From: a virus
Reading direction: 5' to 3' (one strand)
DNA length: 64,000 bases
Virus record (IMG/VR): IMGVR_UViG_3300027747_004779
Span: 64,001-128,000 of that record
A program made the translations under genes and the position numbers. Below the pieces are notes generated by a model that saw only the letters and a program-made list of their open reading frames with translations, ran no database searches and was not told the origin of the DNA. How positions within the stretch are numbered: position 1 is the stretch's first letter; the number at the start of each line of letters is the position of its first letter. Positions 1,014 through 46,281 of the stretch are shown here, in pieces.

Positions 1014-1562
1014 TTACGAGGTTTTTCTCCAGTAATGATAGGAGAGAGTAGCAGTAAATTCAACAGTATTTCCAACACCTTCAGCAATTAGATAATTTAA
1101 AGGACCGACATTGCGTACAGAAACACCAACAAGTTGATACTGTGCGGTCTTGTTCATTTGGTTATCAAGCTGTACAAGATCCATTACAGCGGTCTGCTTC
1201 GGGGCGAAATAATTACCAGTTGAGTTTGAATCATTAAAGATATCTGATGACCACTGTTCAAACTTTTGACGAATCTGTGAATTAGCATCAGTATAGAATG
1301 TTAATTCATAAGCTTCACTGTTAGGATACGTAACATTACCAGGTAGGTTAAAATTTAATCCCATATACGGCACAGCAACATTGGTAATTGAACGAGCAGG
1401 TAAGGAAGCCGTCTTAACATAGATAAGATCGTTATTATCAAATGTTACTGTGCTCGCTCCACCGGTATTAATATTCAATACACGGAAGTTAAAATCACGT
1501 GCGAACTCACGTGTAGTTGCTGCTGTGTAAAAGTCTGTAATGAGTTGATTAACGTCTGCCAT
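1014..1562 (-). CDS. Tail tube protein (T4 gp19-like)
   Basis: VKTASLP, VPYMG..PG, IRQKFEQW, EFTATLSYHYW motifs; directly downstream of sheath. Confidence 0.85.
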   Translation of the reverse strand: MADVNQLITDFYTAATTREFARDFNFRVLNINTGGASTVTFDNNDLIYVKTASLPARSITNVAVPYMGLNFNLPGNVTYPNSEAYELTFYTDANSQIRQKFEQWSSDIFNDSNSTGNYFAPKQTAVMDLVQLDNQMNKTAQYQLVGVSVRNVGPLNYLIAEGVGNTVEFTATLSYHYWRKTS

Positions 1563-1577
1563 AAAATTATTTATCTA

Positions 1578-3869
1578 TTACGATACAATCTCCTGGAAGT
1601 TTGTACCAGTTCTTGTCGCATAGAAATTACAGAGGATGTATTCTGCTGATCTTACAGGTTTAATATAGATATCTACAACAATTGTATTGTCGTCGATTAC
1701 AGAAGGTGGATTATTGCGCTCATCGCAAATGAGAAGATAATCGTATATCCCTTGCGTATTCTTAGCATTATCAAATATCGGTGTTAAGCTATTTAGAACC
1801 TGTGTTCTTGTAAAGAGTGTATTAGGCTCAAATACGAAATATTTTACGGTATCTCTTGTTGCTGTCTCGAGATTTAAGAACAGACGGCGAACGTTAATAC
1901 GGTCAAACGCACTTGGCTTCTTCTGTAGAGTCTTTTGACCGAAGATTACAAACCCTTCTGATGGAAAGAACGTTACCGGGTTTAAATTAATCTTATAGAG
2001 GTTATCGCGTTGCTTCTGTTTCGGATAAATTGCAATATCAACAAGACCTGTTATCACACCGCGTGTAAAGCCGGCTGGTGCATACCAAGGTTGGAATGAA
2101 GAATCTGTATTTGCCATTGCGCCTGCAGCAAATCCCGAGAAAGGAACCCATACTTGCTGATTTGAAGCAATATCAGCTACTTTGCCGCAGTTTGCAAACG
2201 TACAAGCATAACTAGTATCAATACCGGCAAACTGATTCTTTAACGGCCAGTATACATTATCTGAGAATGTGTTTGTTGGTATATCTAAAACTTTAATATT
2301 CGCACCTTGTACAAATATGTTTGTAAAAGGATCGGCGAGAAAGATATGATCTTTGCGTGTTTGCGCGAGATTTAAAAACGCGTTAGCAACTGCAGCGTAT
2401 TGTGCAGCTGGTGTTGATACGCTTGAAGAATTCTGAATAGAAAGTGCTTCAACAGCTGCGTCATACGGAACTGTATCATCAAAGTAACCATATGTTGCAA
2501 GATTGAATGAATTAATATAGATTGTACCGAGACCAGCTTCACAGGTAATATTAATCGGATAGAGATCTACGTTATTAAGCTTTTCTGCAGCGCGATTAAC
2601 TTTACCTGGAACATTGCCAATAATTTTTGTAGCGAGATCTTGGTTGTCATATACACCAATGGGGAAGAGTGAAGCGGTAGATCCAAGATCAAAAAGAGCG
2701 GATGAAACATCGAACTGCGGTGCACCAACACGAGCAGTGTATTCAGCATCAGATTCGCCAGCGAGTGGGGTTGCAAGCGCTTGTGTTAAGAAACGAACTT
2801 TCTTTGTCGGTACACCGGAAAGATTAAGCCATGTTGTCTTATTCTTGTTTGAAATATTAGGATTAATTATGGTTGTAATATTAAGCGATGGACGGTCAAC
2901 AATTTCCATAAAAAAGCTAATAGCGGGGCCACCGTTTATACTGTTAATTTGCCTATTAGCATCAAATGAAGCTGTATAACCATCTTGTAAGAGGTAATCG
3001 AGAGCGATTGTATCAGGCGAAAAGACCGACTGGCGAAGTTTAAAAACACCGATTGTGGCAGTATCATCAAATTGATTAGATGAAATATCAAATGTAGGTA
3101 TATTTTCAAGTACTTCAGAAACACTTCCCTGTAGCCCTGTTGCATCAGCTGAAAGTGTAAAATTTAATCTTACATCAGGAATTCTTACATAATCAGTTCC
3201 AAAAATTGATGTTGAATTATTGTTGATTGAATAAACACTGTTAACATCATTAAATGGTGTTGCAGGGTTGAGATTTGTATTATCAATAATTCCAATATAT
3301 GTACCTTCGAACTTGCTGTTTATTGTTGATTGTGCTTTGTTAAGAACAATTAAACCAGCAGCGCTTAATGAAGCAACATTATCAAAGGTCGTTGTGCCGT
3401 ATGTATCATCGGCCCAAGTAAATCCATCGCCCTTCAATATTGAAAGATATTCAGTCTGTGAAAGTTGAATGTGTGTCGGTTCACCAAAGAAATATGTACT
3501 ATCGTCACCGGTTAGATCTGTAGTTAGTGCACCATGGCTATAAGCTTGTACAGGATATACTAATGCACTATATTCATTACTTGTATCAACGCCGAGACCT
3601 TCACCATAAGGTAGTCTATAAACTATTACGCTAGCAGAAGATTGTAGAGCTGCTTTGACAGAATGGTAAAAATATCTCTCTGCTCCATTAGTAGGTATAC
3701 CAAAAATTTGTTCAAATTCAGAAAGCGATGTTACTGTGATAGGTTCAGAAGAAGGTCCTTTAGAAGCGAATCCAGGTATAAATACTGTGGTTGCTGGGGT
3801 TCCTGTACCTCTCAAGGATAAATCTACTTCATTAATCTCGACTCCGGGGCTTTGAATTGTACGTGCCAT
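1578..3869 (-). CDS. Tail sheath protein (T4 gp18-like)
   Basis: SPGVEINEVD N-terminus; PWYAPAGFTRG, GQKTLQ, FDRINVRRLF, FVFEPN motifs. Confidence 0.97.
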   Translation of the reverse strand: MARTIQSPGVEINEVDLSLRGTGTPATTVFIPGFASKGPSSEPITVTSLSEFEQIFGIPTNGAERYFYHSVKAALQSSASVIVYRLPYGEGLGVDTSNEYSALVYPVQAYSHGALTTDLTGDDSTYFFGEPTHIQLSQTEYLSILKGDGFTWADDTYGTTTFDNVASLSAAGLIVLNKAQSTINSKFEGTYIGIIDNTNLNPATPFNDVNSVYSINNNSTSIFGTDYVRIPDVRLNFTLSADATGLQGSVSEVLENIPTFDISSNQFDDTATIGVFKLRQSVFSPDTIALDYLLQDGYTASFDANRQINSINGGPAISFFMEIVDRPSLNITTIINPNISNKNKTTWLNLSGVPTKKVRFLTQALATPLAGESDAEYTARVGAPQFDVSSALFDLGSTASLFPIGVYDNQDLATKIIGNVPGKVNRAAEKLNNVDLYPINITCEAGLGTIYINSFNLATYGYFDDTVPYDAAVEALSIQNSSSVSTPAAQYAAVANAFLNLAQTRKDHIFLADPFTNIFVQGANIKVLDIPTNTFSDNVYWPLKNQFAGIDTSYACTFANCGKVADIASNQQVWVPFSGFAAGAMANTDSSFQPWYAPAGFTRGVITGLVDIAIYPKQKQRDNLYKINLNPVTFFPSEGFVIFGQKTLQKKPSAFDRINVRRLFLNLETATRDTVKYFVFEPNTLFTRTQVLNSLTPIFDNAKNTQGIYDYLLICDERNNPPSVIDDNTIVVDIYIKPVRSAEYILCNFYATRTGTNFQEIVS

Positions 3870-7235: not shown

Positions 7236-7562
7236 ATGACGTTTAAGAAATATTATATTGAAAACACTGACATAGGAATGAAGAAGCGTCATATGAATCC
7301 TATAGGTAGAGATGTAAGTTCGCATTCCAAGCATCCTGGTAGATTTGTACCACACATGCACAGAACAATAAAGAAAAATCAGAAAGTAGAAAGCCTATTA
7401 AACAAACCATCAGGTAGAATAGTTTTAAATGTACAGGATATTGCAGAGATTGAAAAGGAGTTTAATCTTAATTTTGATCAGCAAGCGCCTAAAAAGCTTG
7501 GTAATACAGGCATTACTATAAAGTTTGATCCAATACTATATAAGGCTATCTTAGAGAAATAA
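7236..7562 (+). CDS. Hypothetical late protein with capsid-targeting-like leader
   Basis: ORF; TAAATA 5 nt upstream; starts MTFKKYYIE. Confidence 0.7.
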   Translation: MTFKKYYIENTDIGMKKRHMNPIGRDVSSHSKHPGRFVPHMHRTIKKNQKVESLLNKPSGRIVLNVQDIAEIEKEFNLNFDQQAPKKLGNTGITIKFDPILYKAILEK

Positions 7563-19823: not shown

Positions 19824-20732
19824 ATGAATAAGGATAGTAAACTCATATTCGAGGCATATTTAACAAAGAAACCTGTATTAAGTGAAGCTCCAATATATGG
19901 GCCGGGAGATTTAGACTATACCGGCGATATTGAAAGCGCCCCGGGAGGTGGTTACGGTGTTGGAACAGCTGCGGCAAAAGAGGGTAAAACAAAGACTGAG
20001 ATTGCCAACCGTATTCTTAATGCTGTCAAAACAAAGCTTTTTAAACCTGCAGCACATACAATCGATGGCAAAGAATATCAACTTTATTATCCTGGTAGTA
20101 AAATGAAGTTTAGAACAGAACTAGAAAATTTAATTAAAAACGAACTTAAGATAGGTGGTACAGCAGCCAAGTATACGGCGCGAGTAATTGATAATTTACT
20201 TAACGTTTTACGTGTAGATGTTGAAGGTGGTGCAGCTGCGTCGCCCGTACAGGTTAAGAAAGCTATTGACACCGGTGTACAGGGTAAGCCGGTATCTGGT
20301 GAGGGATCAACACAACCTGCTGCTCCTCAAGCTGCAGCAAACGTTTTCGTAAAAAATCCTCTTGTTCGTTTTATTAAAGAGTTTATGCCGATTTTTGTTG
20401 AACTACCTGATGAAATTACAACTTCAGGTAAGAAAGACTTTTACGAGTCGGATGAACTTCAGAACGAAGTCAAAGAAGCTATTACAAGAGCTTACGACGA
20501 AGCAAAAGCTAAGGATAAAGAGCTTATAAATGATTTCATCGATTCACTCAAACACAAAAACAGTTATATGCCTCAAGCTGAGGCACAAGCTAAAGAAGGT
20601 GAAGGTACCGGTGAAACCCCAACGGTTGATGAATATCCGGAAGATGATGATGTTACCGGTACATTAAGAGATATTGGCGCGTTACCGGGTAAAGTCGGTC
20701 GTGACCCGGGTAGCTTTAGCTACGGCGATTAA
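19824..20732 (+). CDS. Hypothetical late protein with capsid-targeting-like leader
   Basis: TAAATA 7 nt upstream; starts MNKDSKLIFEAY; lies antisense between queC and the amidotransferase. Confidence 0.75.
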   Translation: MNKDSKLIFEAYLTKKPVLSEAPIYGPGDLDYTGDIESAPGGGYGVGTAAAKEGKTKTEIANRILNAVKTKLFKPAAHTIDGKEYQLYYPGSKMKFRTELENLIKNELKIGGTAAKYTARVIDNLLNVLRVDVEGGAAASPVQVKKAIDTGVQGKPVSGEGSTQPAAPQAAANVFVKNPLVRFIKEFMPIFVELPDEITTSGKKDFYESDELQNEVKEAITRAYDEAKAKDKELINDFIDSLKHKNSYMPQAEAQAKEGEGTGETPTVDEYPEDDDVTGTLRDIGALPGKVGRDPGSFSYGD

Positions 20733-21465
20733 TTGTTTTACAATTATACTTTTTCCAGGGTATCGTTATTTTATAAGAAATAGGGTCTATATACCCCGCA
20801 TCTATAAAGCCTTTTATTCTCAAAGAGCACGCAGTACATTCACCGCAAGCCTGTTCTTCACCCTCATAACAAGTCCAAGTCTGGCTAAAATCCACTCCAA
20901 GCTTTATACCCAGTTTAATGATTTCTTCTTTGGATTTATCAATTAACGGTGCTTGAACAGTAATTCTATTTCTGCGGTTCAAAGCTGATACATTATTAAT
21001 TTGCTCCAAAAATTCTTCGCTACCATCCCAGAACCCTGCAACACTGTCAGCCTGTGCAGCACCATGAAAAACAGTGCTGGCCCCATAGTTTTCTGCTATT
21101 GCAAGTGAAATGCTAAGCAGCATTAAGTTTCTATAGGGAACATAGTTTACCGTCTGCGGGTCGCCCATTACATCCTTGGCTTTAGCTACTGCAACCTTGT
21201 TGTTAAGAAGTGAAGAAACTTGACATATATCTTTAAAAAACGGTAATTTTATATGTTGACTATCAACTGGCATGTCAACTGATTCAATCTGAAATGACGC
21301 GCAGTTTATTTCTTTATCACGATGCTTCTGCCCGTAGTCATAGTTGACCGTAATTACTTTATCATACTCGCTTGCAGCTAAATGTAACAGTACAGAACTA
21401 TCCATTCCCCCGGAAATAGGGACTACTGCTTTACGCGATAGGTGCTTCTTCGCTTGGCGCTTCAT
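20716..21465 (-). CDS. queC: 7-cyano-7-deazaguanine synthase QueC
   Basis: SGGMDS, YGQKH, YVPYRN, TWTCY...CGECTAC. Confidence 0.93.
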   Translation of the reverse strand: MKRQAKKHLSRKAVVPISGGMDSSVLLHLAASEYDKVITVNYDYGQKHRDKEINCASFQIESVDMPVDSQHIKLPFFKDICQVSSLLNNKVAVAKAKDVMGDPQTVNYVPYRNLMLLSISLAIAENYGASTVFHGAAQADSVAGFWDGSEEFLEQINNVSALNRRNRITVQAPLIDKSKEEIIKLGIKLGVDFSQTWTCYEGEEQACGECTACSLRIKGFIDAGYIDPISYKITIPWKKYNCKTINRRS

Positions 21466-32446: not shown

Positions 32447-32860
32447 ATGGATCTTGGACATTGGTTACTTTCAGAAGGTATTTTTCTAAATGAAGATACA
32501 TTCGGCTTCATTTATGAAATAACAAATACAGTTACAAGTAAGAAGTATATTGGTAAAAAGCAGTGTAAATCAAAATTAAAAAGAAAACCATTGAAAGGTA
32601 AGAAAAACAAACGTATAGAAATAAAAGAGTCGGATTGGAAAGAATATACTAGCTCATCTAATGAATTAAATGAAGATATAAAGAAATACGGTAAAGATAG
32701 ATTTATATTTAAAATCTTGCGTGCATGCGGATCAAAATGGGAATTGGCATATTTTGAAATAAAAGAACAATTAGAAAAAAACGTTCTCTTAAGAGATGAC
32801 TATTATAATGGTATTATTAATGTTCGTATTGGCCGTCCTCCAAAAAGTTTTCTTGATTAG
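32447..32860 (+). CDS. GIY-YIG endonuclease (DenA / endonuclease II-like)
   Basis: FGFIYEITN...KKYIGKK, W.EYTSS and YYNGII motifs. Confidence 0.85.
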   Translation: MDLGHWLLSEGIFLNEDTFGFIYEITNTVTSKKYIGKKQCKSKLKRKPLKGKKNKRIEIKESDWKEYTSSSNELNEDIKKYGKDRFIFKILRACGSKWELAYFEIKEQLEKNVLLRDDYYNGIINVRIGRPPKSFLD

Positions 32861-32886: not shown

Positions 32887-33450
32887 ATGCTCAAAAAACT
32901 TGAGTTTAAGCAATATAACTTTCGTATAGTCGACTTTAATTCTATTTTTATTAAAAAAATTGAAGTTGATCTGATCAACGATCTGCATCGGTTTGAGCTA
33001 TTTAAAAATAGAATAACATCGCATACAAAAAAGTTTTTTTATCACCATATAATTTTCGGTTTATGTGAGTTCTTATTACATGAAAAAGCTAAAGAAAAAA
33101 CAATTATATATTTTAATAATACACAAATGTCTGATTTAGAGCTTTTTAAGTATTTTAAAGAGGATGAAGTGCGAGATGTAGTAGAACAAATAGTAAGAAG
33201 AATAAAGATACTACTACCCATTAGAGTCTTTATTACAAATATTTCTTATGATTTCCTTCAGCATCTTATAGACAGAAAAGATGGTAGAGGCGTGGAAGCT
33301 ATAAACAGTCTTAGAACATATATCGATAGTGTTAATTATGAAAAATATACATTTAGTAGGGTTTTAACATTTACAAAGCGCAATGATCTTATTTTTTTAA
33401 GTAAAGAATATTTTGATAAGCTTAAAGCAAAGCAACTTATAATAGTTTAA
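32887..33450 (+). CDS. Hypothetical protein
   Basis: ORF with TTGATT-N17-CATAAT promoter. Confidence 0.7.
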   Translation: MLKKLEFKQYNFRIVDFNSIFIKKIEVDLINDLHRFELFKNRITSHTKKFFYHHIIFGLCEFLLHEKAKEKTIIYFNNTQMSDLELFKYFKEDEVRDVVEQIVRRIKILLPIRVFITNISYDFLQHLIDRKDGRGVEAINSLRTYIDSVNYEKYTFSRVLTFTKRNDLIFLSKEYFDKLKAKQLIIV

Positions 33451-33455
33451 AACAA

Positions 33456-33461
33456 TAAATA
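33456..33461 (+). promoter_or_regulatory. Late promoter TAAATA for the four-gene operon 33467-36885
   Basis: gp55-type motif 5 nt before the ATG. Confidence 0.75.
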
Positions 33462-33466
33462 ATATT

Positions 33467-33907
33467 ATGACCTTTAATGAACGTATGGCAAAATACAAAT
33501 CTCTTCTAAATGAACAAGAGCCAGTTCCGCAAGATGCAGCTGCCCCTGCACCGCAAGCAGAGCAACCTTCAGCACTACCTGCAAAAGCTGCACCAATGGC
33601 TGTTCCACCCGAGGGATATGTAGATATGGTGAGATTACTTGCTAAGGCTTTAGTGATGAATGTACCTGCAGGGTCGGTTGATACATTGTTTACAAAGCCT
33701 ATAACAAAAGAGAACGCAATAGAAATGAGAGAGCAAATTGAAAATGCTATTTCAACAAGCGAGAGTGTAGGTGATAATGAAATGCGAATAACAAATCCTA
33801 ACGTTGAGAAATTTGTTAATTCAATTAATGAAAATAATTTTATGGCGAAATATAAGCAAATTCTTGCTATGATGAGAAATTATAGTAACGACCCGAAGTT
33901 AAAATGA
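33467..33907 (+). CDS. Hypothetical late protein with capsid-targeting-like leader
   Basis: TAAATA 5 nt upstream; MTFNERMAKYKSLLNE followed by an Ala/Pro linker. Confidence 0.75.
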   Translation: MTFNERMAKYKSLLNEQEPVPQDAAAPAPQAEQPSALPAKAAPMAVPPEGYVDMVRLLAKALVMNVPAGSVDTLFTKPITKENAIEMREQIENAISTSESVGDNEMRITNPNVEKFVNSINENNFMAKYKQILAMMRNYSNDPKLK

Positions 33908-33908
33908 T

Positions 33909-35015
33909 ATGGAAAAATATCGAAGCTTACAGGATATTTATTTAAAAGAAAGCTTTGCAAAGTCACTACCCCCTTTGCCTAGACAGACAATTAATTGGTT
34001 AATGGAAGCTATAGCTGATGCCCCGCCTCCTGCTCCCAATTCAGCTTATGTACAGCTTTACGTAAAAGATCCTTCAAAAAATGAACAACAATTTGTAGGT
34101 AATATCGATATAGATTATTTTAATAAAGTTGTTAAGCCTGTTTTAAATAGAGGATCAGAGGGTGCAATTAATGTTAATAAGTTAATAGAAAAAAGACTTA
34201 AAGATGCAAATATAACAACTGAGAATTTAAATATAATTTTTGATTATATACAGAACACAGGAATAAAAATTTCTTCTGAAAATTTTGCTAAATGTCAGAG
34301 TATACTTAAAACTGCGATTGCTTCAGAAACACCTTTTAACATAACTACTGTTTTATCAGAGAGTTTTGATACACCTGTAGAGAGCATTTCAAATAAATCA
34401 AATGAGCTTCTAGGCCTTATGCGCTTAAAAGCACAAAGTGGTTCTGCAACATTTGAAGATCGTAGTCAGGTTGCGGGTCCTGGTGAAGTTGTTTTGAGCT
34501 TCTTTGGTAACGGTAGAAAGCTTATAACATCGAAAAAGAAAACAGAAGCCGCTACAGCAGAAAAAGGAGATATATCTTTAGGTGAATTGAGAATAGAGCT
34601 TAAAGGAACGCAGGGAAGAATATACCCAGCAACAAAAATTACTTATAGTCAGCACGGTACTCCGGGTGATTTTGCAAAGAAAAACTTACAGAATAATCCA
34701 TTAGATGTAGTAAAGTATTATACGTTCGGTGAAGAGGGGCTATCAATTGATAGATTCGATAATGAAATTAATGCTGGCCTGAAGCAAAATATAGATGTAA
34801 GACTTTTAGCAACAGGGCTAGCATTAAGAGAGTATCAAGTAAAAAGTGGATTTCATTATTATGGTTTTGTAGATTCAAAAACATTTAATTGTGTAGCTTT
34901 AACAAGCGCAGATAAAGATATTATCGCTATAGGTAAATTTTATACTTCTTATATTGGTAATTATTTAAGCTTTGATAGAGGCGGTCATAAATTACCGCCC
35001 GCTTTTAAAATATAA
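33909..35015 (+). CDS. Putative PD-(D/E)XK nuclease-like protein
   Basis: GPGE...GDI...IELKG motif arrangement. Confidence 0.55.
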   Translation: MEKYRSLQDIYLKESFAKSLPPLPRQTINWLMEAIADAPPPAPNSAYVQLYVKDPSKNEQQFVGNIDIDYFNKVVKPVLNRGSEGAINVNKLIEKRLKDANITTENLNIIFDYIQNTGIKISSENFAKCQSILKTAIASETPFNITTVLSESFDTPVESISNKSNELLGLMRLKAQSGSATFEDRSQVAGPGEVVLSFFGNGRKLITSKKKTEAATAEKGDISLGELRIELKGTQGRIYPATKITYSQHGTPGDFAKKNLQNNPLDVVKYYTFGEEGLSIDRFDNEINAGLKQNIDVRLLATGLALREYQVKSGFHYYGFVDSKTFNCVALTSADKDIIAIGKFYTSYIGNYLSFDRGGHKLPPAFKI

Positions 35016-36235
35016 TGATGACGTTTAAACAGTTTCTGCTTGAAGGCGGAGTTGCTGGTCATATGGCACATCCTTACGATCTGCCTAATGTTAATACAGG
35101 AAGAGATCTTATTAACGTCTTTAATAAAATAGCTACTAGCTTAGTTAAAAAGCCTTCTGTAGTAAAAATAGATGGTGTTAATGCCTCTATTAAGCTTATT
35201 ACAAATAAAGAGGGTAATAAAGAGTTTGCTATGGATAGAGGCTCAAATAAGCCAGAAGATGTAGAGGGTGTTACTATCGATAAGCTCAGCTCACGCTTTC
35301 CAGAGGGTCATGGTATGAGAGAAACGGGTAAAGTTGTATTAGAAATTTTTAATCAAGCTTTACCTTCAATAGAAAAGGAGCTCAAACAATTAAAGATGTG
35401 GGATAATAATCGCATTCTCTTTAATATGGAATTTGTTAAAGGTGCGACAAACGTAATTGGATATGCAAATAACTTTCTTGCTATTCACGGGTTAAATGAA
35501 ATAGTTGAGGTTAAAAGCCCTGTTCGAGGAAGTGTAAGTCGTGCATCGCGTGAAATACCTTATGATAAAAAAGCTTTACAATCGCTAATAGAAAAAGTCA
35601 AACCAATTGCTGAAAAATATAATTTTGACGTGGTAAATGAGTTTGTTGTTACACTAGCGAATAGGATTGATTTTAATCCAGAATTAAATTCAAAATTTTC
35701 TGTTAGTTATGATTCACGTAACATTCAAACAAAACCTTTAAAAGATTGGCTTAGTGAGGCAAAAAATCCTCGTGCTGATAAGATTAAGCTTGCATCAGGT
35801 AAATCTATTAGTGCGGTGAGTTTAGAAAATTATAAGAACATGTCTGCAGGGGTGCCTTTAGATCATTATCTTGGTAAGAATACAAAGGATTATCAAAAAG
35901 CAATTGATGGTGCGGTATTAATACACGCAACAATTTTAATGGGTCAAAAGATAAAAGATACTGCAACTTCAGAATTAGGTAATGTAGGTACACAAGAGGG
36001 TATTGTTATAAGAGATTCAAGTATATCTGTTAATCCGTTAAAAATAACAGGTAATTTTTTTACCGGCAAGGAAACAGGTCGTATTAAGCAGCTTAAAACA
36101 CAAGAGGAAGAAGAGGGTATTAAGGGTCAGCTCTCAAATACTAATAAAGTATTAAATTATAAAAACTATCAAACTAACCCCCCTTACGGAAAAGAAGGTG
36201 CGCGGTTAACATTAACACCAGGAATGAGTCTATGA
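35015..36235 (+). CDS. RNA-ligase-like covalent nucleotidyltransferase (DUF6267-like)
   Basis: Motif I KIDG, III NMEF, IV EGIVI, V LKI; N-terminus MMTFKQFLLEGGVAGHMAHP. Confidence 0.65.
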   Translation: MMTFKQFLLEGGVAGHMAHPYDLPNVNTGRDLINVFNKIATSLVKKPSVVKIDGVNASIKLITNKEGNKEFAMDRGSNKPEDVEGVTIDKLSSRFPEGHGMRETGKVVLEIFNQALPSIEKELKQLKMWDNNRILFNMEFVKGATNVIGYANNFLAIHGLNEIVEVKSPVRGSVSRASREIPYDKKALQSLIEKVKPIAEKYNFDVVNEFVVTLANRIDFNPELNSKFSVSYDSRNIQTKPLKDWLSEAKNPRADKIKLASGKSISAVSLENYKNMSAGVPLDHYLGKNTKDYQKAIDGAVLIHATILMGQKIKDTATSELGNVGTQEGIVIRDSSISVNPLKITGNFFTGKETGRIKQLKTQEEEEGIKGQLSNTNKVLNYKNYQTNPPYGKEGARLTLTPGMSL

Positions 36236-36885
36236 AGTTTGATACATTAGTAGAGCAGATATTACAGCCACAGAAAAATAATCTTATTGTTATTTTTCCC
36301 GGGCGGTTTCAACCTTTTCATGTTGGTCATAAAAAGCTTTATGATGCTGCAAAACAGAAATTTCCTGGTGCCGATTTTTATATAGCCACAGCAGATACAA
36401 CAGAAAATAGCGCTAAAGAGCCTGATCGTTATCCTTTTAATTTTGCAGAAAAAAAAGAAATTATTAAAGCGACGGGTATACCGGAAAAAGAAATTGTACT
36501 TACAAAACAACCTTACAAGCCTATTGAAATTTTAAAAAACTATGATCAAAATGTTGCAAAAGTAATTTATATTGTAGGTGAAAAGGATATGAGAGAGGAT
36601 CCGCGATTTTCCTTTAAGCCTAAAAAAGATGGCTCTGCTCCTTACTTTCAGCCATTCAAGAGCTTAAATGAGCTCGAACCGTTTAAAGAACAAGGTGGTC
36701 ATGGCTACATCTATGCACCGGGTACAATACAGTTTAATCTCGGTGGTAAAAATATTACTAGTGCAACAGAGCTGAGAAATATGTATAAAGCAGCTGACGA
36801 GGCTACAAAAAAGCAGTATATAAAAGACGTTTTAGGTAAATTTGATCCAAAAGTCTATAATCTGTTTAACACAAAATTGCGTTAA
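36232..36885 (+). CDS. HIGH-motif nucleotidyltransferase (NMNAT/cytidylyltransferase-like)
   Basis: PGRFQPFHVGH, YPF, VGEKD and SATELR motifs. Confidence 0.85.
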   Translation: MKFDTLVEQILQPQKNNLIVIFPGRFQPFHVGHKKLYDAAKQKFPGADFYIATADTTENSAKEPDRYPFNFAEKKEIIKATGIPEKEIVLTKQPYKPIEILKNYDQNVAKVIYIVGEKDMREDPRFSFKPKKDGSAPYFQPFKSLNELEPFKEQGGHGYIYAPGTIQFNLGGKNITSATELRNMYKAADEATKKQYIKDVLGKFDPKVYNLFNTKLR

Positions 36886-37535
36886 TTTTTATTTTCAAGT
36901 AAAACAATGGTTTCTAGTAATACCTTTTCGAGTGTTTCTCTCGATTCTTTTCTCAATACCGTCCTAAGCTGGCTTACTAAAGAATCACCGCCATTTGCAA
37001 TTGCTTTATAAAGATCTTCTTCGTTATTTTCTTCAACGCCCATCATCTCCATCTGACTACGAGCGGCTTCGTAATCCTTATAATCAAATACGGATTCAAG
37101 GTCATCATGAGCATTAGTAAGCTTGCTTAATACCCATGCTTCAACATTACCGCCCTTGCGTATAATATCGTGAAGCATTGCTGAAAGTTTAAAAATTCTA
37201 AATAATAACTGTTTGGACATGTATTCATTCTTTTCAGTTTCCTCAAGACCGTCTTGAAGGTTCATTCCGCCGTCACATCCCTCGCATTCTTCATTTTTTT
37301 GATTTGCTTGACATTCCTCACATTCACTACAATCACATCCTTTAGCAGCATAAGGACAATGAGCGTCTTCTTCGTTTTCGCAGCCGCATTCTTTTTCTGG
37401 AACCTTAAAGCTCTGTATCTTCGAAGGTGTAGGTGTTACACTCTGATTATCAGCTTCTGGTCCAAGACCGAGATTCTCCTTAACGATCTTTTGATTATAG
37501 ATCTCATTTAAGAGGTGAAAGTCCTTATGGAACAT
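36882..37535 (-). CDS. Late protein with an acidic Cys-rich segment
   Basis: TAAATA 5 nt upstream; 9 Cys in about 40 aa; EAWVLSKLT.A.D.L.SVFDY helix. Confidence 0.7.
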   Translation of the reverse strand: MFHKDFHLLNEIYNQKIVKENLGLGPEADNQSVTPTPSKIQSFKVPEKECGCENEEDAHCPYAAKGCDCSECEECQANQKNEECEGCDGGMNLQDGLEETEKNEYMSKQLLFRIFKLSAMLHDIIRKGGNVEAWVLSKLTNAHDDLESVFDYKDYEAARSQMEMMGVEENNEEDLYKAIANGGDSLVSQLRTVLRKESRETLEKVLLETIVLLENKN

Positions 37536-37996: not shown

Positions 37997-38398
37997 ATGG
38001 AAGCGTTTAAAGATTTTTACAATAAACCAGTACTAGGTGTTGATGAAGTTATTGACGTTGAGGGATTAGGTGAGGTAAAGGCAAAAGTCGATAGCGGTAA
38101 TGAGGCGTATAATGTTATTCACGGTATAGATATCTCGCAAGAAGGGGATAACATATCTTTTACAACAGTAGGTGGAAAAAGAATGACAGCACCAAGAGAT
38201 GGTGAAATAAAAATACATATAGGAAGTGGTGTTAAGGAAGATAGGCCTACGGTAAAGCTTAATATTAAAATCGGCGATAAAGCTTATAAGGGTGTAACGT
38301 TTAGTGTTGCAGATCGATCTGAGAATCAAGATCCTATCTTAATAGGTGAACCGTTTCTTAAGCAATTAAACGCTGTTATCGACGTAAATAAAAAATAA
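37997..38398 (+). CDS. Retropepsin-like aspartic protease (RimK-associated / RimB-like)
   Basis: AKVDSG catalytic motif; ERP-like DRPTV, DRS and ILIG. Confidence 0.8.
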   Translation: MEAFKDFYNKPVLGVDEVIDVEGLGEVKAKVDSGNEAYNVIHGIDISQEGDNISFTTVGGKRMTAPRDGEIKIHIGSGVKEDRPTVKLNIKIGDKAYKGVTFSVADRSENQDPILIGEPFLKQLNAVIDVNKK

Positions 38399-38400
38399 AA

Positions 38401-39042
38401 TTAATTCTGCGCAAACTCGACAAACTTGTAAAACTCAGCTCGTGAATTATCATTATTATCTAGAAACGCACCAGACATTCTGGCTGTACGCATCGTTGAA
38501 TCATGTCTAATACCACGATTAGAACAGCAGGTATGATTGGCTTCAATCATTACAGCTACCCCATTATTTTTTTCACATACTAGATCAATATGAGCATGAA
38601 TTTGCATGGTAAGGTTTTCCTGTACCTGCGGACGGCGGGCAAACCAATCAACAATACGATTGAGCTTGCTTAAACCAATAACCTTACCTTCCTTAGATGG
38701 TATATAAGCTACATGAGCTACACCAGTAAAAGGTGCATGATGATGTGAGCAAAGCGAAGTCAATTTAATATTATTTTGACAGACCATGCCATCATATTGA
38801 TCGATATTATCAAAGGCTGTAATTTTCGGTGGTTTACTATAACAGCCCCATGCAAAGTCTTCTACAAAGGCCTTAGCCACGCGATGTGGGGTATTATCGC
38901 TGTTAGGATCATTTCTCCAATCATAACCTAATGCATCCATGTATGCTTCATAAGCTTTAGATGCTCTTTCAATTATTTGTTCTCTTTCTTCTTGAGTATG
39001 AGGATGATTATGATTAGCGAAAGCGAGTTTTACTTTAGACAT
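38401..39042 (-). CDS. folE: GTP cyclohydrolase I FolE
   Basis: TPHRVAK, SLCSHH, GLSKLNR, RRPQVQE and H.C...RG motifs. Confidence 0.95.
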   Translation of the reverse strand: MSKVKLAFANHNHPHTQEEREQIIERASKAYEAYMDALGYDWRNDPNSDNTPHRVAKAFVEDFAWGCYSKPPKITAFDNIDQYDGMVCQNNIKLTSLCSHHHAPFTGVAHVAYIPSKEGKVIGLSKLNRIVDWFARRPQVQENLTMQIHAHIDLVCEKNNGVAVMIEANHTCCSNRGIRHDSTMRTARMSGAFLDNNDNSRAEFYKFVEFAQN

Positions 39043-40608: not shown

Positions 40609-41274
40609 ATGAAATACGAGAGTACAAAGATAATTGAATTAGGTAGCTGTGCATTTAGACAATGGAAAGCTGATAGTCATTGCAAATTTATACATGGATA
40701 TAGATTAGTAGCTAAATTTTGGTTTGCATGCAATTATTTAGATGAAAAAAATTGGGTAGTAGATTTTGGTGGGTTAAAAGGTCTTAAGCAAGTTTTGGAG
40801 AAACAGTTTGATCATACATTATGTATTGCAGCAGATGACCCTTTACTTGAAGTGTTTAAACAGCTACATTCAACAGGAGGATGTGATTTGAGAGTTATGT
40901 CTAAAGGTGTTGGAATTGAAAGAACTGCGGAATGGTGTTTTGATGTAGCTGATGGGCATGTAAGAGGTATTACAAATAATAGATGTTGGGTCGAAAAGGT
41001 AGAAGTATGGGAACATGATAAAAATTCTGCTATTGTTTCTTTTAGTACTACGGCTGAAGTTCACCAATCGATTGGTGAGACGGTTGCAACAACAATACAA
41101 GCACCAATAAATCAAGTTAGAGACTTTTTAGAGGATGTAGCAGAAGAGACAGGTGTTAATGTTTCTAATGTACTCAAGAATGCACCTCCAACAGAGTCTC
41201 AGGCTGCGCGTGTAGGCAATAAGATAACAACAGGTTATGCAAACTTATTTGGCGGTACAAGCTGGGGTCAGTAA
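40609..41274 (+). CDS. queD: QueD (6-carboxytetrahydropterin synthase) with C-terminal extension
   Basis: HCKFIHGY, WVVDFG, FDH and VEVWEH motifs. Confidence 0.9.
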   Translation: MKYESTKIIELGSCAFRQWKADSHCKFIHGYRLVAKFWFACNYLDEKNWVVDFGGLKGLKQVLEKQFDHTLCIAADDPLLEVFKQLHSTGGCDLRVMSKGVGIERTAEWCFDVADGHVRGITNNRCWVEKVEVWEHDKNSAIVSFSTTAEVHQSIGETVATTIQAPINQVRDFLEDVAEETGVNVSNVLKNAPPTESQAARVGNKITTGYANLFGGTSWGQ

Positions 41275-43158: not shown

Positions 43159-43896
43159 ATGAACGATAAGACTATTTTTTTGAGTGACGATAAACTCTTT
43201 TATACCCTCGAGGGTGAAGGTGAATATGTAGGATATCCTTCTGTGTTTATGCGTCTCTCTATGTGTAACTTGACATGTAAAGGCTTTGCATCTGCAGATT
43301 CGCCTAATGGTTGTGATAGCTTTATTAGCTGGTCGGTGAAAAATAGAATGACTTTTGATCAAGTATTTGACTATATGACACAACGCGGTTATCAATGTCA
43401 TTTAAAGGACGGTGCTATTTGGAAGATTACTGGCGGCGAGCCGCTTATTCAGCAGAAAGCTCTTCTTGAACTTGTGGATCAATATATTTTTAGATTTGGA
43501 TATATACCTAAGATTGACTTTGAAACTAATGCAACAATATTACCTGATCAACAATGGAAAGACTGGGGTGCTACTTTTACTACATCACCTAAGCTTAGCA
43601 ATAACGGCGACCCTGTTGAAAGGAGATATAAGCCCGAAGTTTTAAAATGGCATGCTCAAAACCGATCCGGATTTAAATTTGTAGTCAGTAGTGAGGATGA
43701 AGTAAAAGAAATTTTAGAAAAATATGTATATGAATGTAAAGTGCCAACAGATCGCATTTGGCTTATGCCATGCTGTGGCAGTAGAGATGAACATACCGAA
43801 AAATGCCCGGGTGTCGCCGACTTATGTAAAAAACATAATCTTAAATTTAGTCCGAGATTGCAGCTTGTAATTTGGAATAAAGCTCTTAAAGTATAA
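43159..43896 (+). CDS. queE: 7-carboxy-7-deazaguanine synthase QueE (radical SAM)
   Basis: TLEGEG, CX3CX11C, TGGEP, ETN, SPKL and PRLQ motifs. Confidence 0.9.
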   Translation: MNDKTIFLSDDKLFYTLEGEGEYVGYPSVFMRLSMCNLTCKGFASADSPNGCDSFISWSVKNRMTFDQVFDYMTQRGYQCHLKDGAIWKITGGEPLIQQKALLELVDQYIFRFGYIPKIDFETNATILPDQQWKDWGATFTTSPKLSNNGDPVERRYKPEVLKWHAQNRSGFKFVVSSEDEVKEILEKYVYECKVPTDRIWLMPCCGSRDEHTEKCPGVADLCKKHNLKFSPRLQLVIWNKALKV

Positions 43897-43897
43897 C

Positions 43898-44638
43898 ATG
43901 AGAATTGCAATATCAGGCACAGCATGTCAGGGCAAGTCGACATTTATTAATGATTTTATCAAATATTGGCCTGCATATAGTCGATCGCAGGAATCATACA
44001 GGAAAGTTCTTAAAGACGAAAAACTTAATATTAATAAAAAAGTTGATAAAGAGGGGCAATGGAAAATTTTAAATTGTTTAATTGATGATATTCAAAAAAC
44101 AGAAAAAGGAGATAAGATTTTATTTGATAGATGTCCGCTAGATAACCTTGTATATTCATTATGGAGTGAAGAAAAACAAACTTCAGATATTGATAAAAAA
44201 TTTATTGATAAATGTATACCGCTTGTACAAGAGAGTATGCGTGCAATTGATATTATTCTTTTTATACCTATTACAAGAGCTGCACCGGTTAAGCTTGAAA
44301 TAAAAGAGAATAGAGAGCTTGATAAGGAATTTATTGAAGAGATAGATAATATTTTTAAAGCCATAGCACGTAATTTAATGTCTAAAGGGGTCTGTCCATT
44401 TATGAAAGAAGATGATAGACCTCCTATGATAGAAGTCTTTGGTAACCCTGAACAACGCGTTGAAATGTGTAAACTTTATATTGATAATCAAGGAGATCTC
44501 ATTGATGAAGGTAAAAGTATTCTTGATGCAGATAACTTAAGTAAGATGGAGCAACTTTTAAATATGCAGAAAGGCATTTTAAAAGATGAAAAATTAGAAG
44601 CAGCTATTGCAAATAGAATCATTACTGGCCATAAATAA
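43898..44638 (+). CDS. P-loop nucleotide kinase-like protein (AAA_28 / NadR-Ttd14 type)
   Basis: GTACQGKST and FDRCPLDNLVY motifs. Confidence 0.75.
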   Translation: MRIAISGTACQGKSTFINDFIKYWPAYSRSQESYRKVLKDEKLNINKKVDKEGQWKILNCLIDDIQKTEKGDKILFDRCPLDNLVYSLWSEEKQTSDIDKKFIDKCIPLVQESMRAIDIILFIPITRAAPVKLEIKENRELDKEFIEEIDNIFKAIARNLMSKGVCPFMKEDDRPPMIEVFGNPEQRVEMCKLYIDNQGDLIDEGKSILDADNLSKMEQLLNMQKGILKDEKLEAAIANRIITGHK

Positions 44639-45561: not shown

Positions 45562-46281
45562 TTATGTTGTTGTATATGTATACAACAATCTCCAATACAG
45601 AGGCGATTCTTCTTTAACTCGGTAGCCCGCATTTGCAGTAAATGTTAAACCATTTAACCCATCGTTAAGAACATTAGTTACATATGGGCAGGTTGAAAGC
45701 GGTACTGTAGATGTGAGTAGAATATGTTGTGGTTGTATTGAGCCTGGCGATATATCAGGATGACGATTAAAGAACCCTGCAATGTTATATGCTTGTGAGA
45801 CATTATTTGCATTAATTGTTACATAGCTTTGACCCGGATCGTTGCTTGATTCATCAACAACAATTCTATATATAGTATTTTGAAAAGTAGTTAATGCTGG
45901 TAGAACAGTATTATTTATATATTGATATTCTGGAGACCCAAGCACATAAGATGCACTAGTAACCAGACCACCGGTAATTGTAAAGACGTTGTAATAACCA
46001 GCAGGCGCAAAAACACCCGCTTTATCATTAGCAGTAAAATTTAAGCTCGATACTGTTTCACTGCTCTTAATATTAGTAAAGTTACAACTACCACCAGAAA
46101 GACCACCCTCAACAGTAGCATTACCAGCAGCATCTGTCTTTACTACATTAAAATTTTGAAAATCTATTGTTTGAATACCGCTATCTGTTTGAATAAGCAA
46201 CAGATCACCGTTAACTGCTTCTTGTGTTTGCGGTAAATCAGCTATATTAATACTATTACTATTTGAAGAGGTAATTGCCAT
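45562..46281 (-). CDS. Putative virion structural protein, paralogue A
   Basis: TATAAATA upstream; I.DLP...GDLL N-terminus resembling fibre proteins. Confidence 0.65.
   Translation of the reverse strand: MAITSSNSNSINIADLPQTQEAVNGDLLLIQTDSGIQTIDFQNFNVVKTDAAGNATVEGGLSGGSCNFTNIKSSETVSSLNFTANDKAGVFAPAGYYNVFTITGGLVTSASYVLGSPEYQYINNTVLPALTTFQNTIYRIVVDESSNDPGQSYVTINANNVSQAYNIAGFFNRHPDISPGSIQPQHILLTSTVPLSTCPYVTNVLNDGLNGLTFTANAGYRVKEESPLYWRLLYTYTTT

Follow-up and report, generated by a model that had tools for sequence, protein, structure and literature searches.

The window analysed here, a stretch of 64,000 nucleotides (nt), comprises bases 64001-128000 of IMGVR_UViG_3300027747_004779, a 157.9-kb virus record in IMG/VR, and the subject of this report is an operon of four plus-strand genes within it, P1 to P4 (positions are those of the window unless the record is named). 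P1 (33467-33907, 146 amino acids (aa)) and P2 (33909-35015, 368 aa) are separated by a gap of 1 nt, P2 and P3 (35015-36235, 406 aa, the L3 domain) overlap by 1 nt (TAATG), and P3 and P4 (36232-36885, 217 aa, the N4 domain) overlap by 4 nt (ATGA); a preliminary description of the locus had spoken of four tightly coupled genes, and this is confirmed. The order P1-P2-P3-P4, preceded by a gene for a 187-aa protein, is kept across the T4-like clade. A reading of these frames as chance open reading frames (ORFs) was rejected because homologues number in the hundreds. The source phage is uncultured and a distant relative of T4, with a UvsW-like helicase ~30% identical to the cyanophage and Aeromonas T4-like counterparts; among its genes is one for a prohead protease of gp21 type (Peptidase_S77, PF03420, 117 bits).

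P3 begins with a 10-residue leader resembling a capsid-targeting sequence (CTS), followed by a conserved N-terminus, GGxAGHMxHPFD, and a ligase/capping nucleotidyltransferase fold with an insert of ~135 residues (about 185-320) upstream of motif IV. An AlphaFold model of P3, made with an alignment of 24 sequences, has a mean predicted local distance difference test (pLDDT) score of 79.5, with residues 1-15 and the tail 353-406 disordered. The sequence K51-I-D-G (35165..35176, +) contains the predicted nucleotidylated lysine, K51, and its K, D and G do not vary across the 123 sequences aligned (24 + 59 + 40); in the same three sets, E139, E328-G (part of E328-G-I-V-I) and K343 are strictly or almost strictly conserved. 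I read K51-I-D-G, E139, E328-G and K343 as motifs I, III, IV and V, in that order. When the model was compared exhaustively with known structures (VIA wide), ranks 1-26 were all ligases or capping enzymes (Z 5.1-7.8, 141-212 residues aligned), led by T4 Rnl1 (Z 7.8), Pmar-Lig (7.4) and Naegleria Rnl (7.3) and continuing with Trl1, REL1 and Rnl2 and then DNA ligases and capping enzymes. Foldseek against the PDB gave weak matches to the same families. From the aligned ends I infer that K51 lies opposite K99, the motif I lysine of Rnl1, and K343 opposite motif V. Judged by its modelled fold and conserved motifs, P3 is a member of the lysine-nucleotidylating ligase/capping superfamily, the identity that the preliminary description had proposed from the motifs.

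Downstream of motif V (K343) the model contains nothing other than the disordered tail (353-406, pLDDT <50), with neither an OB domain nor motif VI, and the architecture is therefore like that of RNA ligases; the insert at 185-320 was assessed only within the whole P3 model, and an OB-like substitute may lie there. P3 shares with the OB-less ATP-dependent RNA ligases (T4 Rnl1, Rnl2, Naegleria Rnl5 and fungal Trl1) the nucleotidyltransferase fold and motifs I, III, IV and V in order, but it differs from them in giving no sequence-profile match, in the insert before motif IV, in the invariant GGxAGHMxHPFD and in having a single lysine in motif V. Pfam, PHROG and NCBIfam searches found no match for P3, PDB sequence searches with P3 alone and with the 24-sequence profile found none either, and hhalign of the P3 profile against T4 Rnl2 and T4 gp30 gave no match. 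RNA_ligase (PF09414) appears weakly in 5 of the 24 relatives, at E 0.04 or worse and below the gathering cut-off. The DUF6267 model (PF19782) has no match in the genome, though the Atlas lists this family for 21-26% of cluster members, and DUF6267 is not mentioned in any paper found. In BFVD, P3 matches viral proteins with SET or cytidyltransferase domains. A distant structural match there (E 1.3e-5) is a cytidyltransferase-like protein of Synechococcus phage S-PM2 (NC_006820; L097 3133-6062), in which p142, annotated "cytidyltransferase", and an overlapping 586-aa p143 stand among replication genes; hhalign of the P3 profile against p142 and p143 was not significant.

P4 carries GRFQPFHVGH and SATELR (S177-ATEL-R182), and G24, R25, F26, P28, H33 and R182 are invariant. 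Its HxGH motif, H30-V-G-H33, lies at 36319..36330 (+); the first histidine of this motif is displaced in N4-L3 fusions (PFGRHH). P4 passes the superfamily models PF01467 (32.9 bits, cut-off 21) and TIGR00125 (31.6 bits, cut-off 27.7), its nearest PDB profile matches are the NadM nicotinamide mononucleotide (NMN) adenylyltransferase (NMNAT) 2qjt (2e-6) and MJ0541 (2e-4), to which only the first ~65 residues of P4 align, and its closest matches in cultured phages are annotated as NadM-type NMNAT/Nudix proteins. By sequence, P4 is an HxGH (cytidylyltransferase-like) nucleotidyltransferase nearest to the NadM and archaeal NMNATs, with which it has GRFQPFHxGH and SxTxxR in common and which are its best solved relatives. 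It is unlike them in scoring below the family cut-offs and in having invariant motifs of its own, KDM, DPRF, YFQ and HGY. The preliminary description had taken P4 for a NadM-type NMNAT; since it satisfies superfamily models only and reaches 20-25 bits where the equivalog cut-offs are 127-397, "NMNAT-like" seems a fair term and membership of an NMNAT family does not. Nampt (PF04095) was not found in the record, and the operon differs from the phage NAD+ pathways (NARP2, NadM-type NMNAT/Nudix) in that neither a Nampt nor a Nudix partner was found here. A P-loop kinase of the AAA_28 family (35 bits; 43898-44638, +; no NCBIfam match) is encoded 7 kb downstream of the NMNAT-like gene; AAA_28 is the Pfam family that contains the NadR ribosylnicotinamide kinase domain.

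Conserved linkage between P3 and P4 had been set beforehand as a test of the preliminary description, and it is present in 66 of 77 related loci: the two are fused in 41, and the HxGH gene lies within two ORFs in a further 25. Contig ends interrupt four of the remaining 11 loci. Among 150 L3 representatives, an N4 domain is found in at least 46 by hidden Markov model and in 65 by motif, in both orders. In the fusion of Microcystis phage Mel-JY01, for instance, a P4-like N-terminal part (33% identity) precedes a P3-like C-terminal part (27%). P3 and P4 thus form a single functional unit: in most relatives they are neighbours or are joined in one protein, with both orders represented. Compared with tRNA repair by T4 Pnkp and Rnl1, a kinase-phosphatase partner was not identified for P3, and an HxGH enzyme is the partner instead.

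The L3/N4 fusions also take in other domains. Tad3, a validated ThsB-binding inhibitor of Thoeris (PMC13728456), stands between N4 and L3 in P0166, P0168 and P0196 (82-105 bits), and DUF192, SET, DUF5661, GNAT, Amidase_2 and ART-PolyVal occur in further fusions. HD, CCA-adding and Pol X domains were found neither in the 99 fusions scanned nor among the 120 longer forms listed. Such proteins are of the polyvalent type described from phages and conjugative elements by Iyer et al. (2017, PMC5512222) and predicted there to be injected effectors, in that relatives of P3 and P4 are found in proteins of 700-2000 residues with ART-PolyVal, SET, GNAT, Amidase_2, Tad3 and DUF192. The window operon does not have the polyvalent architecture, its parts being four separate genes, and a term search of PMC5512222 found neither a ligase-fold nor an HxGH domain among the polyvalent-protein domains.

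The P3 family has 1207 near-length relatives; a profile search gave 590 clusters at 50% identity, and there are 404 longer, fused forms of 712-2030 residues. Its Atlas clusters are 100% viral, and a cellular origin was rejected, only 5 contigs from metagenome-assembled genomes having been found among 185,579 species genomes. On these sequence counts, P3 is the founder of a virus-only ligase/capping family that is almost absent from cultured phages. The family is abundant in water metagenomes and is recognised by none of the curated profiles tested. No paper was found that describes the P3 family, Mel-JY01 or a heterodimeric phage ligase.

The two upstream genes of the operon, P1 and P2, found no match in Pfam, PHROG or NCBIfam. 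P1 has a 16-residue leader ending in L-N-E, then a Pro/Ala/Gln-rich stretch and then a helical C-terminal part; 34 related loci have an orthologue in the equivalent place, and the leader is kept in it. P2 opens with a long leader (MEKYRSLQDIYLKE...LPPLPRQ) and, beyond a variable middle part, has a C-terminal core of PD-(D/E)XK type (E193, D221, E230, K232), whose putative catalytic stretch GPGE...GD...ELK is encoded at 34485..34604 (+; codons E193 to K232). Across 22 sequences, 17-92% identical to P2, the residues G190, E193, G220-D221 and E230-x-K232 are invariant and R237 is nearly so, and the PD-(D/E)XK-like motif noticed in the preliminary description thus withstood comparison. The P2 model has a pLDDT of 80.5; Foldseek ranks HinP1I first with it, weakly (E 0.66), and the nearest named Atlas clusters are SmaI and R.HinP1I, both at 0.82. 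P2 is probably a restriction-endonuclease-like nuclease, as its model and invariant residues suggest. It resembles the monomeric type II PD-(D/E)XK enzymes HinP1I, MspI and HhaI in the invariant E, GD and ExK, and these come out on top in two fold searches and the Atlas feature search; it is unlike them in its additional leader, its variable N-terminal half, its lack of a methyltransferase partner and its fold Z scores below 4.

Elsewhere in the window, genes at 38401-39042 (-), 40609-41274 (+), 43159-43896 (+) and 20716-21465 (-) look by eye like FolE, QueD, QueE and QueC, which would make up a 7-deazaguanine pathway. If these calls by eye are right, the phage DNA may be modified, which could shield it against the phage's own P2.

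Upstream of P1 lies a late-promoter-like heptamer, ATAAATA (33455..33461, +), 5 nt from the P1 ATG (ACAATAAATAATATTATG). The heptamer occurs 94 times in the 157.9-kb record, and 31 of these copies are exactly 5-7 nt upstream of a predicted ATG, the genes concerned including tail sheath, tail tube, the gp21-type prohead protease, fibre-like genes and P1. In 18 of the 34 related loci the P1 orthologue has the heptamer placed likewise before it. The window shows no enrichment of the exact T4 late octamer TATAAATA (11 observed, 14.8 expected), and scans for sigma-70-like sites and terminators gave chance levels only. I take ATAAATA-N5-ATG to be this clade's late promoter, from which mRNAs with little or no leader would arise, and the cassette would therefore be a late operon. 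The single late promoter suggested for the operon in the preliminary description fits this, the motif being common to P1 and the structural genes (tail sheath, tail tube, protease). The architecture can also serve as a rule for annotating late genes in this uncultured clade. Other genes in the window with ATAAATA before their ATG are, for example, those at 1014-1562 (-), 1578-3869 (-), 10101, 19824, 36882-37535 (-), 37997, 40147 and 45562-46281 (-).

All four proteins of the operon start with a leader that ends in (L/I/V)-x-E, namely LNE16 in P1, LKE14 in P2, LLE10 in P3 and LVE8 in P4. The pattern [LIVMF]-x-E within residues 4-17 is found in 27% of the genome's 180 ORFs, and the chance that four consecutive ORFs have it is about 0.005. 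The P3 leader, MMTFKQFLLE (35015..35044, +), is a predicted capsid-targeting propeptide with a predicted cut after L-L-E, and is closely similar to the targeting leaders of T4 IPI, IPII and IPIII (MKTYQEFIAE in IPII and IPIII and MKTFKEF... in IPI, all from NC_000866). P3 orthologues have leaders of variable length, such as MKTFKQYYSTILNE, MKSFKQFIINE and MTTFKEFYQLISE, that always finish in [LI]-x-E abutting the invariant GGxAGHMxHPFD, and a leaderless homologue on a 235-kb contig (L056) begins with MGGAAGHM, which is exactly the predicted mature end. Similarly, a leaderless N4 domain in an N4-L3 fusion (L044) begins at the first strand, MIKTVIAIYPGRF, and the linker in L3-N4 fusions of the T4-like clade retains a peptide that resembles the P4 leader, MKFDTLVE, and ends in x-E. 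The P1 (...SLLNE) and P2 (...IYLKE) leaders are conserved as well, and a long leader of P2 type (KYKSL..VY..E......LPRQ) substitutes for the short one on some P3 orthologues. The preliminary description had given capsid-targeting-like leaders to all four proteins; this is supported for P3, whose leader is T4 CTS-like, whereas the leaders of P1, P2 and P4 resemble a known CTS only in the L/V-x-E end.

Leaders of these kinds were also seen on other genes. A late gene for a 133-aa protein at 37997-38398 (+) has a CTS-like start, MEAFKDFYNKP, its counterpart in L033 starts with MKTFKQYIQE, and the protein matches PF05618 (Zn_protease, retropepsin-like) below threshold, at 23.9 bits for a cut-off of 27. 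Further leaders of P3 or P4 type are MTFKKYYIEN, MISFKEFYLEE and MKFDVLVDNILE, the last belonging to a protein of 283 aa whose gene follows a late motif; the genes are at 7236-7562 (+) in the window and at 2664-2930 (+) and 1816-2667 (+) in the record. A second leader type, M..D..LI[FY]EAY, is carried by several late genes of unassigned function (MFHKDFHLLNEIY, MNKDSKLIFEAY, MHKDCHLIYEAY and MTNDNSLIFEAY), at 36882-37535 (-) and 19824-20732 (+) in the window and at 150332-150670 (-), which is 86332-86670 on the window scale, and 134462-135454 (+) in the record; it is also found beside the operon in related loci. It seems, from these sequences, that the phage has many candidate head-cargo proteins.

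I interpret the locus as a late head-cargo operon of a T4-related phage, with P3 and P4 injected as a ligase-type unit and P2 as a nuclease, for early counter-defence or host takeover, and I give this interpretation about an even chance of being right. T4 IPI-III and the packaged ADP-ribosyltransferase Alt would be the model for head loading and ejection. In T4, L/I-X-E is the cleavage site of gp21, which cuts behind the E, and the ten N-terminal residues of IPIII are enough for head loading (PMC9026906), and the T-even internal proteins are diverse defence proteins with only the CTS in common (PMC3012670). The operon compares with IPI, IPII, IPIII and Alt in its late genes, its ~10-residue L/I-x-E leader (on P3), its gp21-type protease and its diverse cargo; it differs from the T4 internal proteins in that it encodes large enzymes of three folds and not small inhibitors, and in that only one of its four leaders is like the T4 CTS. 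I infer the packaging, cleavage, activity and substrates of the P1-P4 products as follows. P1 to P4 would bind the scaffold core via their leaders, a gp21-type protease would trim these, and the proteins would stay inside the capsid until they are injected along with the DNA. In the cell, P3 would form a Lys51-AMP adduct and would seal or adenylylate the 5'-phosphate ends of broken nucleic acid, RNA being likelier than DNA. P4 would make an A(5')pp(5')X compound for the unit, most simply NAD+ from NMN and ATP, and this NAD+ would keep the unit running after host immunity depletes NAD+. Both folds form A(5')pp(5')X bonds, the ligase via Lys-AMP and the HxGH enzyme directly, and in the simplest coupling P4 would produce or renew the adenylyl donor for the ligase-type reaction of P3. 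P2 would cut host or rival DNA, and the net role would be early counter-defence or host takeover. Counter-defence was part of the preliminary description, and it is as a setting that the fusions with Tad3 and ART-PolyVal favour it.

Several observations weigh against this interpretation. The 157.9-kb record is an estimated 74% complete, and the genome is thus partial. The Z scores of the P3 fold matches are middling (all <8), though the match list is uniform, the top fold matches of P2 are all weak (HinP1I Z 3.9, HhaI 3.8, MspI 3.8), and P4 scores 25.5 bits with the NMNAT equivalog NF003786, 23.9 with NF002243 and 19.9 with TIGR01527, for which the cut-offs are 397, 127 and 181. The P1, P2 and P4 leaders are unlike known CTS apart from their L/V-x-E ending. 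In the representatives P0132-P0279 and loci L024-L081, [LIVMFY]-x-E immediately precedes GGxxGHM in 41 of 42 N-terminal domains and in 41 of 44 internal ones, and being equally conserved at internal L3 it may belong to the domain instead of to a cut site; on these alignments, it would be either a polyprotein processing joint or part of the domain fold. Among 50,697 phage records, the module is found in Mel-JY01 and one uncultured 484-kb record only. In two other lineages, finally, the fused gene is leaderless and has as its neighbours a primase gene and an SbcCD-like gene, not head genes; SegE plus primase also occur as its neighbours outside the T4-like clade.

A bolder form of the head-cargo interpretation, which I put forward tentatively and regard as doubtful, is that L3 with its obligatory HxGH partner represents a previously undescribed two-enzyme nucleotidyl-transfer system, delivered in the virion by large aquatic phages and acting at the onset of infection. 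The two enzymes would be delivered either individually, each tagged with a CTS, or within a polyprotein that a protease cuts into pieces, and in the latter the [LIVMF]-x-E-GG joint would be a processing site that frees the N-terminal Gly-Gly-x-x-Gly-His-Met active-site element. The pair would reseal or cap nucleic-acid ends or remake an ADP-linked cofactor or signal, blunting RNA-cutting or NAD+-depleting immunity. If head delivery of P1 to P4 is true, T4-type head loading delivers a set of large enzymes, one of them of a ligase-fold family, beyond small inhibitors and one ADP-ribosyltransferase. The NMNAT-like pairing and the fusions with a Thoeris inhibitor and ART-PolyVal would also be a testable lead to a counter-defence that ties nucleotide-cofactor supply to nucleic-acid end chemistry.

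The main alternative to head cargo, which I consider unlikely, is an unpackaged, cytoplasmic DNA-joining module in which P3 and P4 replace the T4 gp30 DNA ligase. They would seal nicks, Okazaki fragments or recombination intermediates ahead of packaging, and their N-terminal extensions would be ordinary helices. It would account for the fused gene adjoining a primase and an SbcCD-like gene in two other lineages, and in the fold search DNA ligases (Pmar-Lig, Z 7.4) come close to the RNA ligases. There is also a precedent for pairing a cofactor maker with a ligase in jumbo phages, where genes for NAD+ synthesis accompany one for an NAD-dependent DNA ligase (PMC11662467). Ligases of PF01068 and PF09414 were not found in the 158-kb record, as expected of a replaced gp30, but the record is incomplete and a canonical ligase may sit in the missing 26%. 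However, the absence of an OB domain and motif VI from P3, where only a disordered tail follows motif V, does not suit a DNA ligase, and neither the late motif of structural genes before the operon nor the CTS-like leader of P3 suits a cytoplasmic one. Fusions with Tad3, ART-PolyVal, SET, GNAT and amidase domains are likewise unexpected for a replication ligase.

Small-molecule nucleotide metabolism, in which P4 makes NAD+ or another ADP-linked cofactor and P3 adenylylates a small phosphate compound, strikes me as improbable. Late in infection, once NADase immunity is triggered, the pair would then restore NAD+ or supply it to effectors that use it, such as ADP-ribosyltransferases. Phages are known to have pathways that reconstitute NAD+, P4 has NadM and archaeal NMNATs as its closest solved relatives, its nearest cultured-phage matches are annotated as NadM-type NMNAT/Nudix proteins, and the fusions with the Thoeris inhibitor Tad3 and with NAD+-using ART-PolyVal point the same way, as does the AAA_28 kinase 7 kb downstream. 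On the other side, the domains of a polyvalent protein need not belong to a common pathway (PMC5512222). P4 itself falls below every NMNAT equivalog cut-off with only ~65 N-terminal residues aligned, and Nampt is missing from the record as searched with PF04095. Finally, no NAD+ pathway is known to employ a ligase-fold enzyme.

A role in the particle, with P3 capping or sealing ends or nicks of packaged phage DNA or serving assembly non-catalytically, is in keeping with late expression alongside structural genes and with T4 Rnl1 (gp63), which has a second role in tail-fibre attachment, as the best structural match, but it is very improbable given the strict conservation of the catalytic motifs, and it leaves the HxGH pairing and the host-directed effector fusions unexplained.

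Just upstream of the cassette is a SegE-type GIY-YIG homing endonuclease gene (PF19835, 108 bits; 32447-32860, +), and an unrelated lineage too has a SegE-like gene next to its ligase-like fusion gene (L078 2062-2487). The gene for the 187-aa protein (32887-33450, +), of unassigned function, stops 4 nt upstream of the late motif, and in almost every related locus of the T4-like clade the identical upstream place is taken by a gene for a protein of 185-187 aa.

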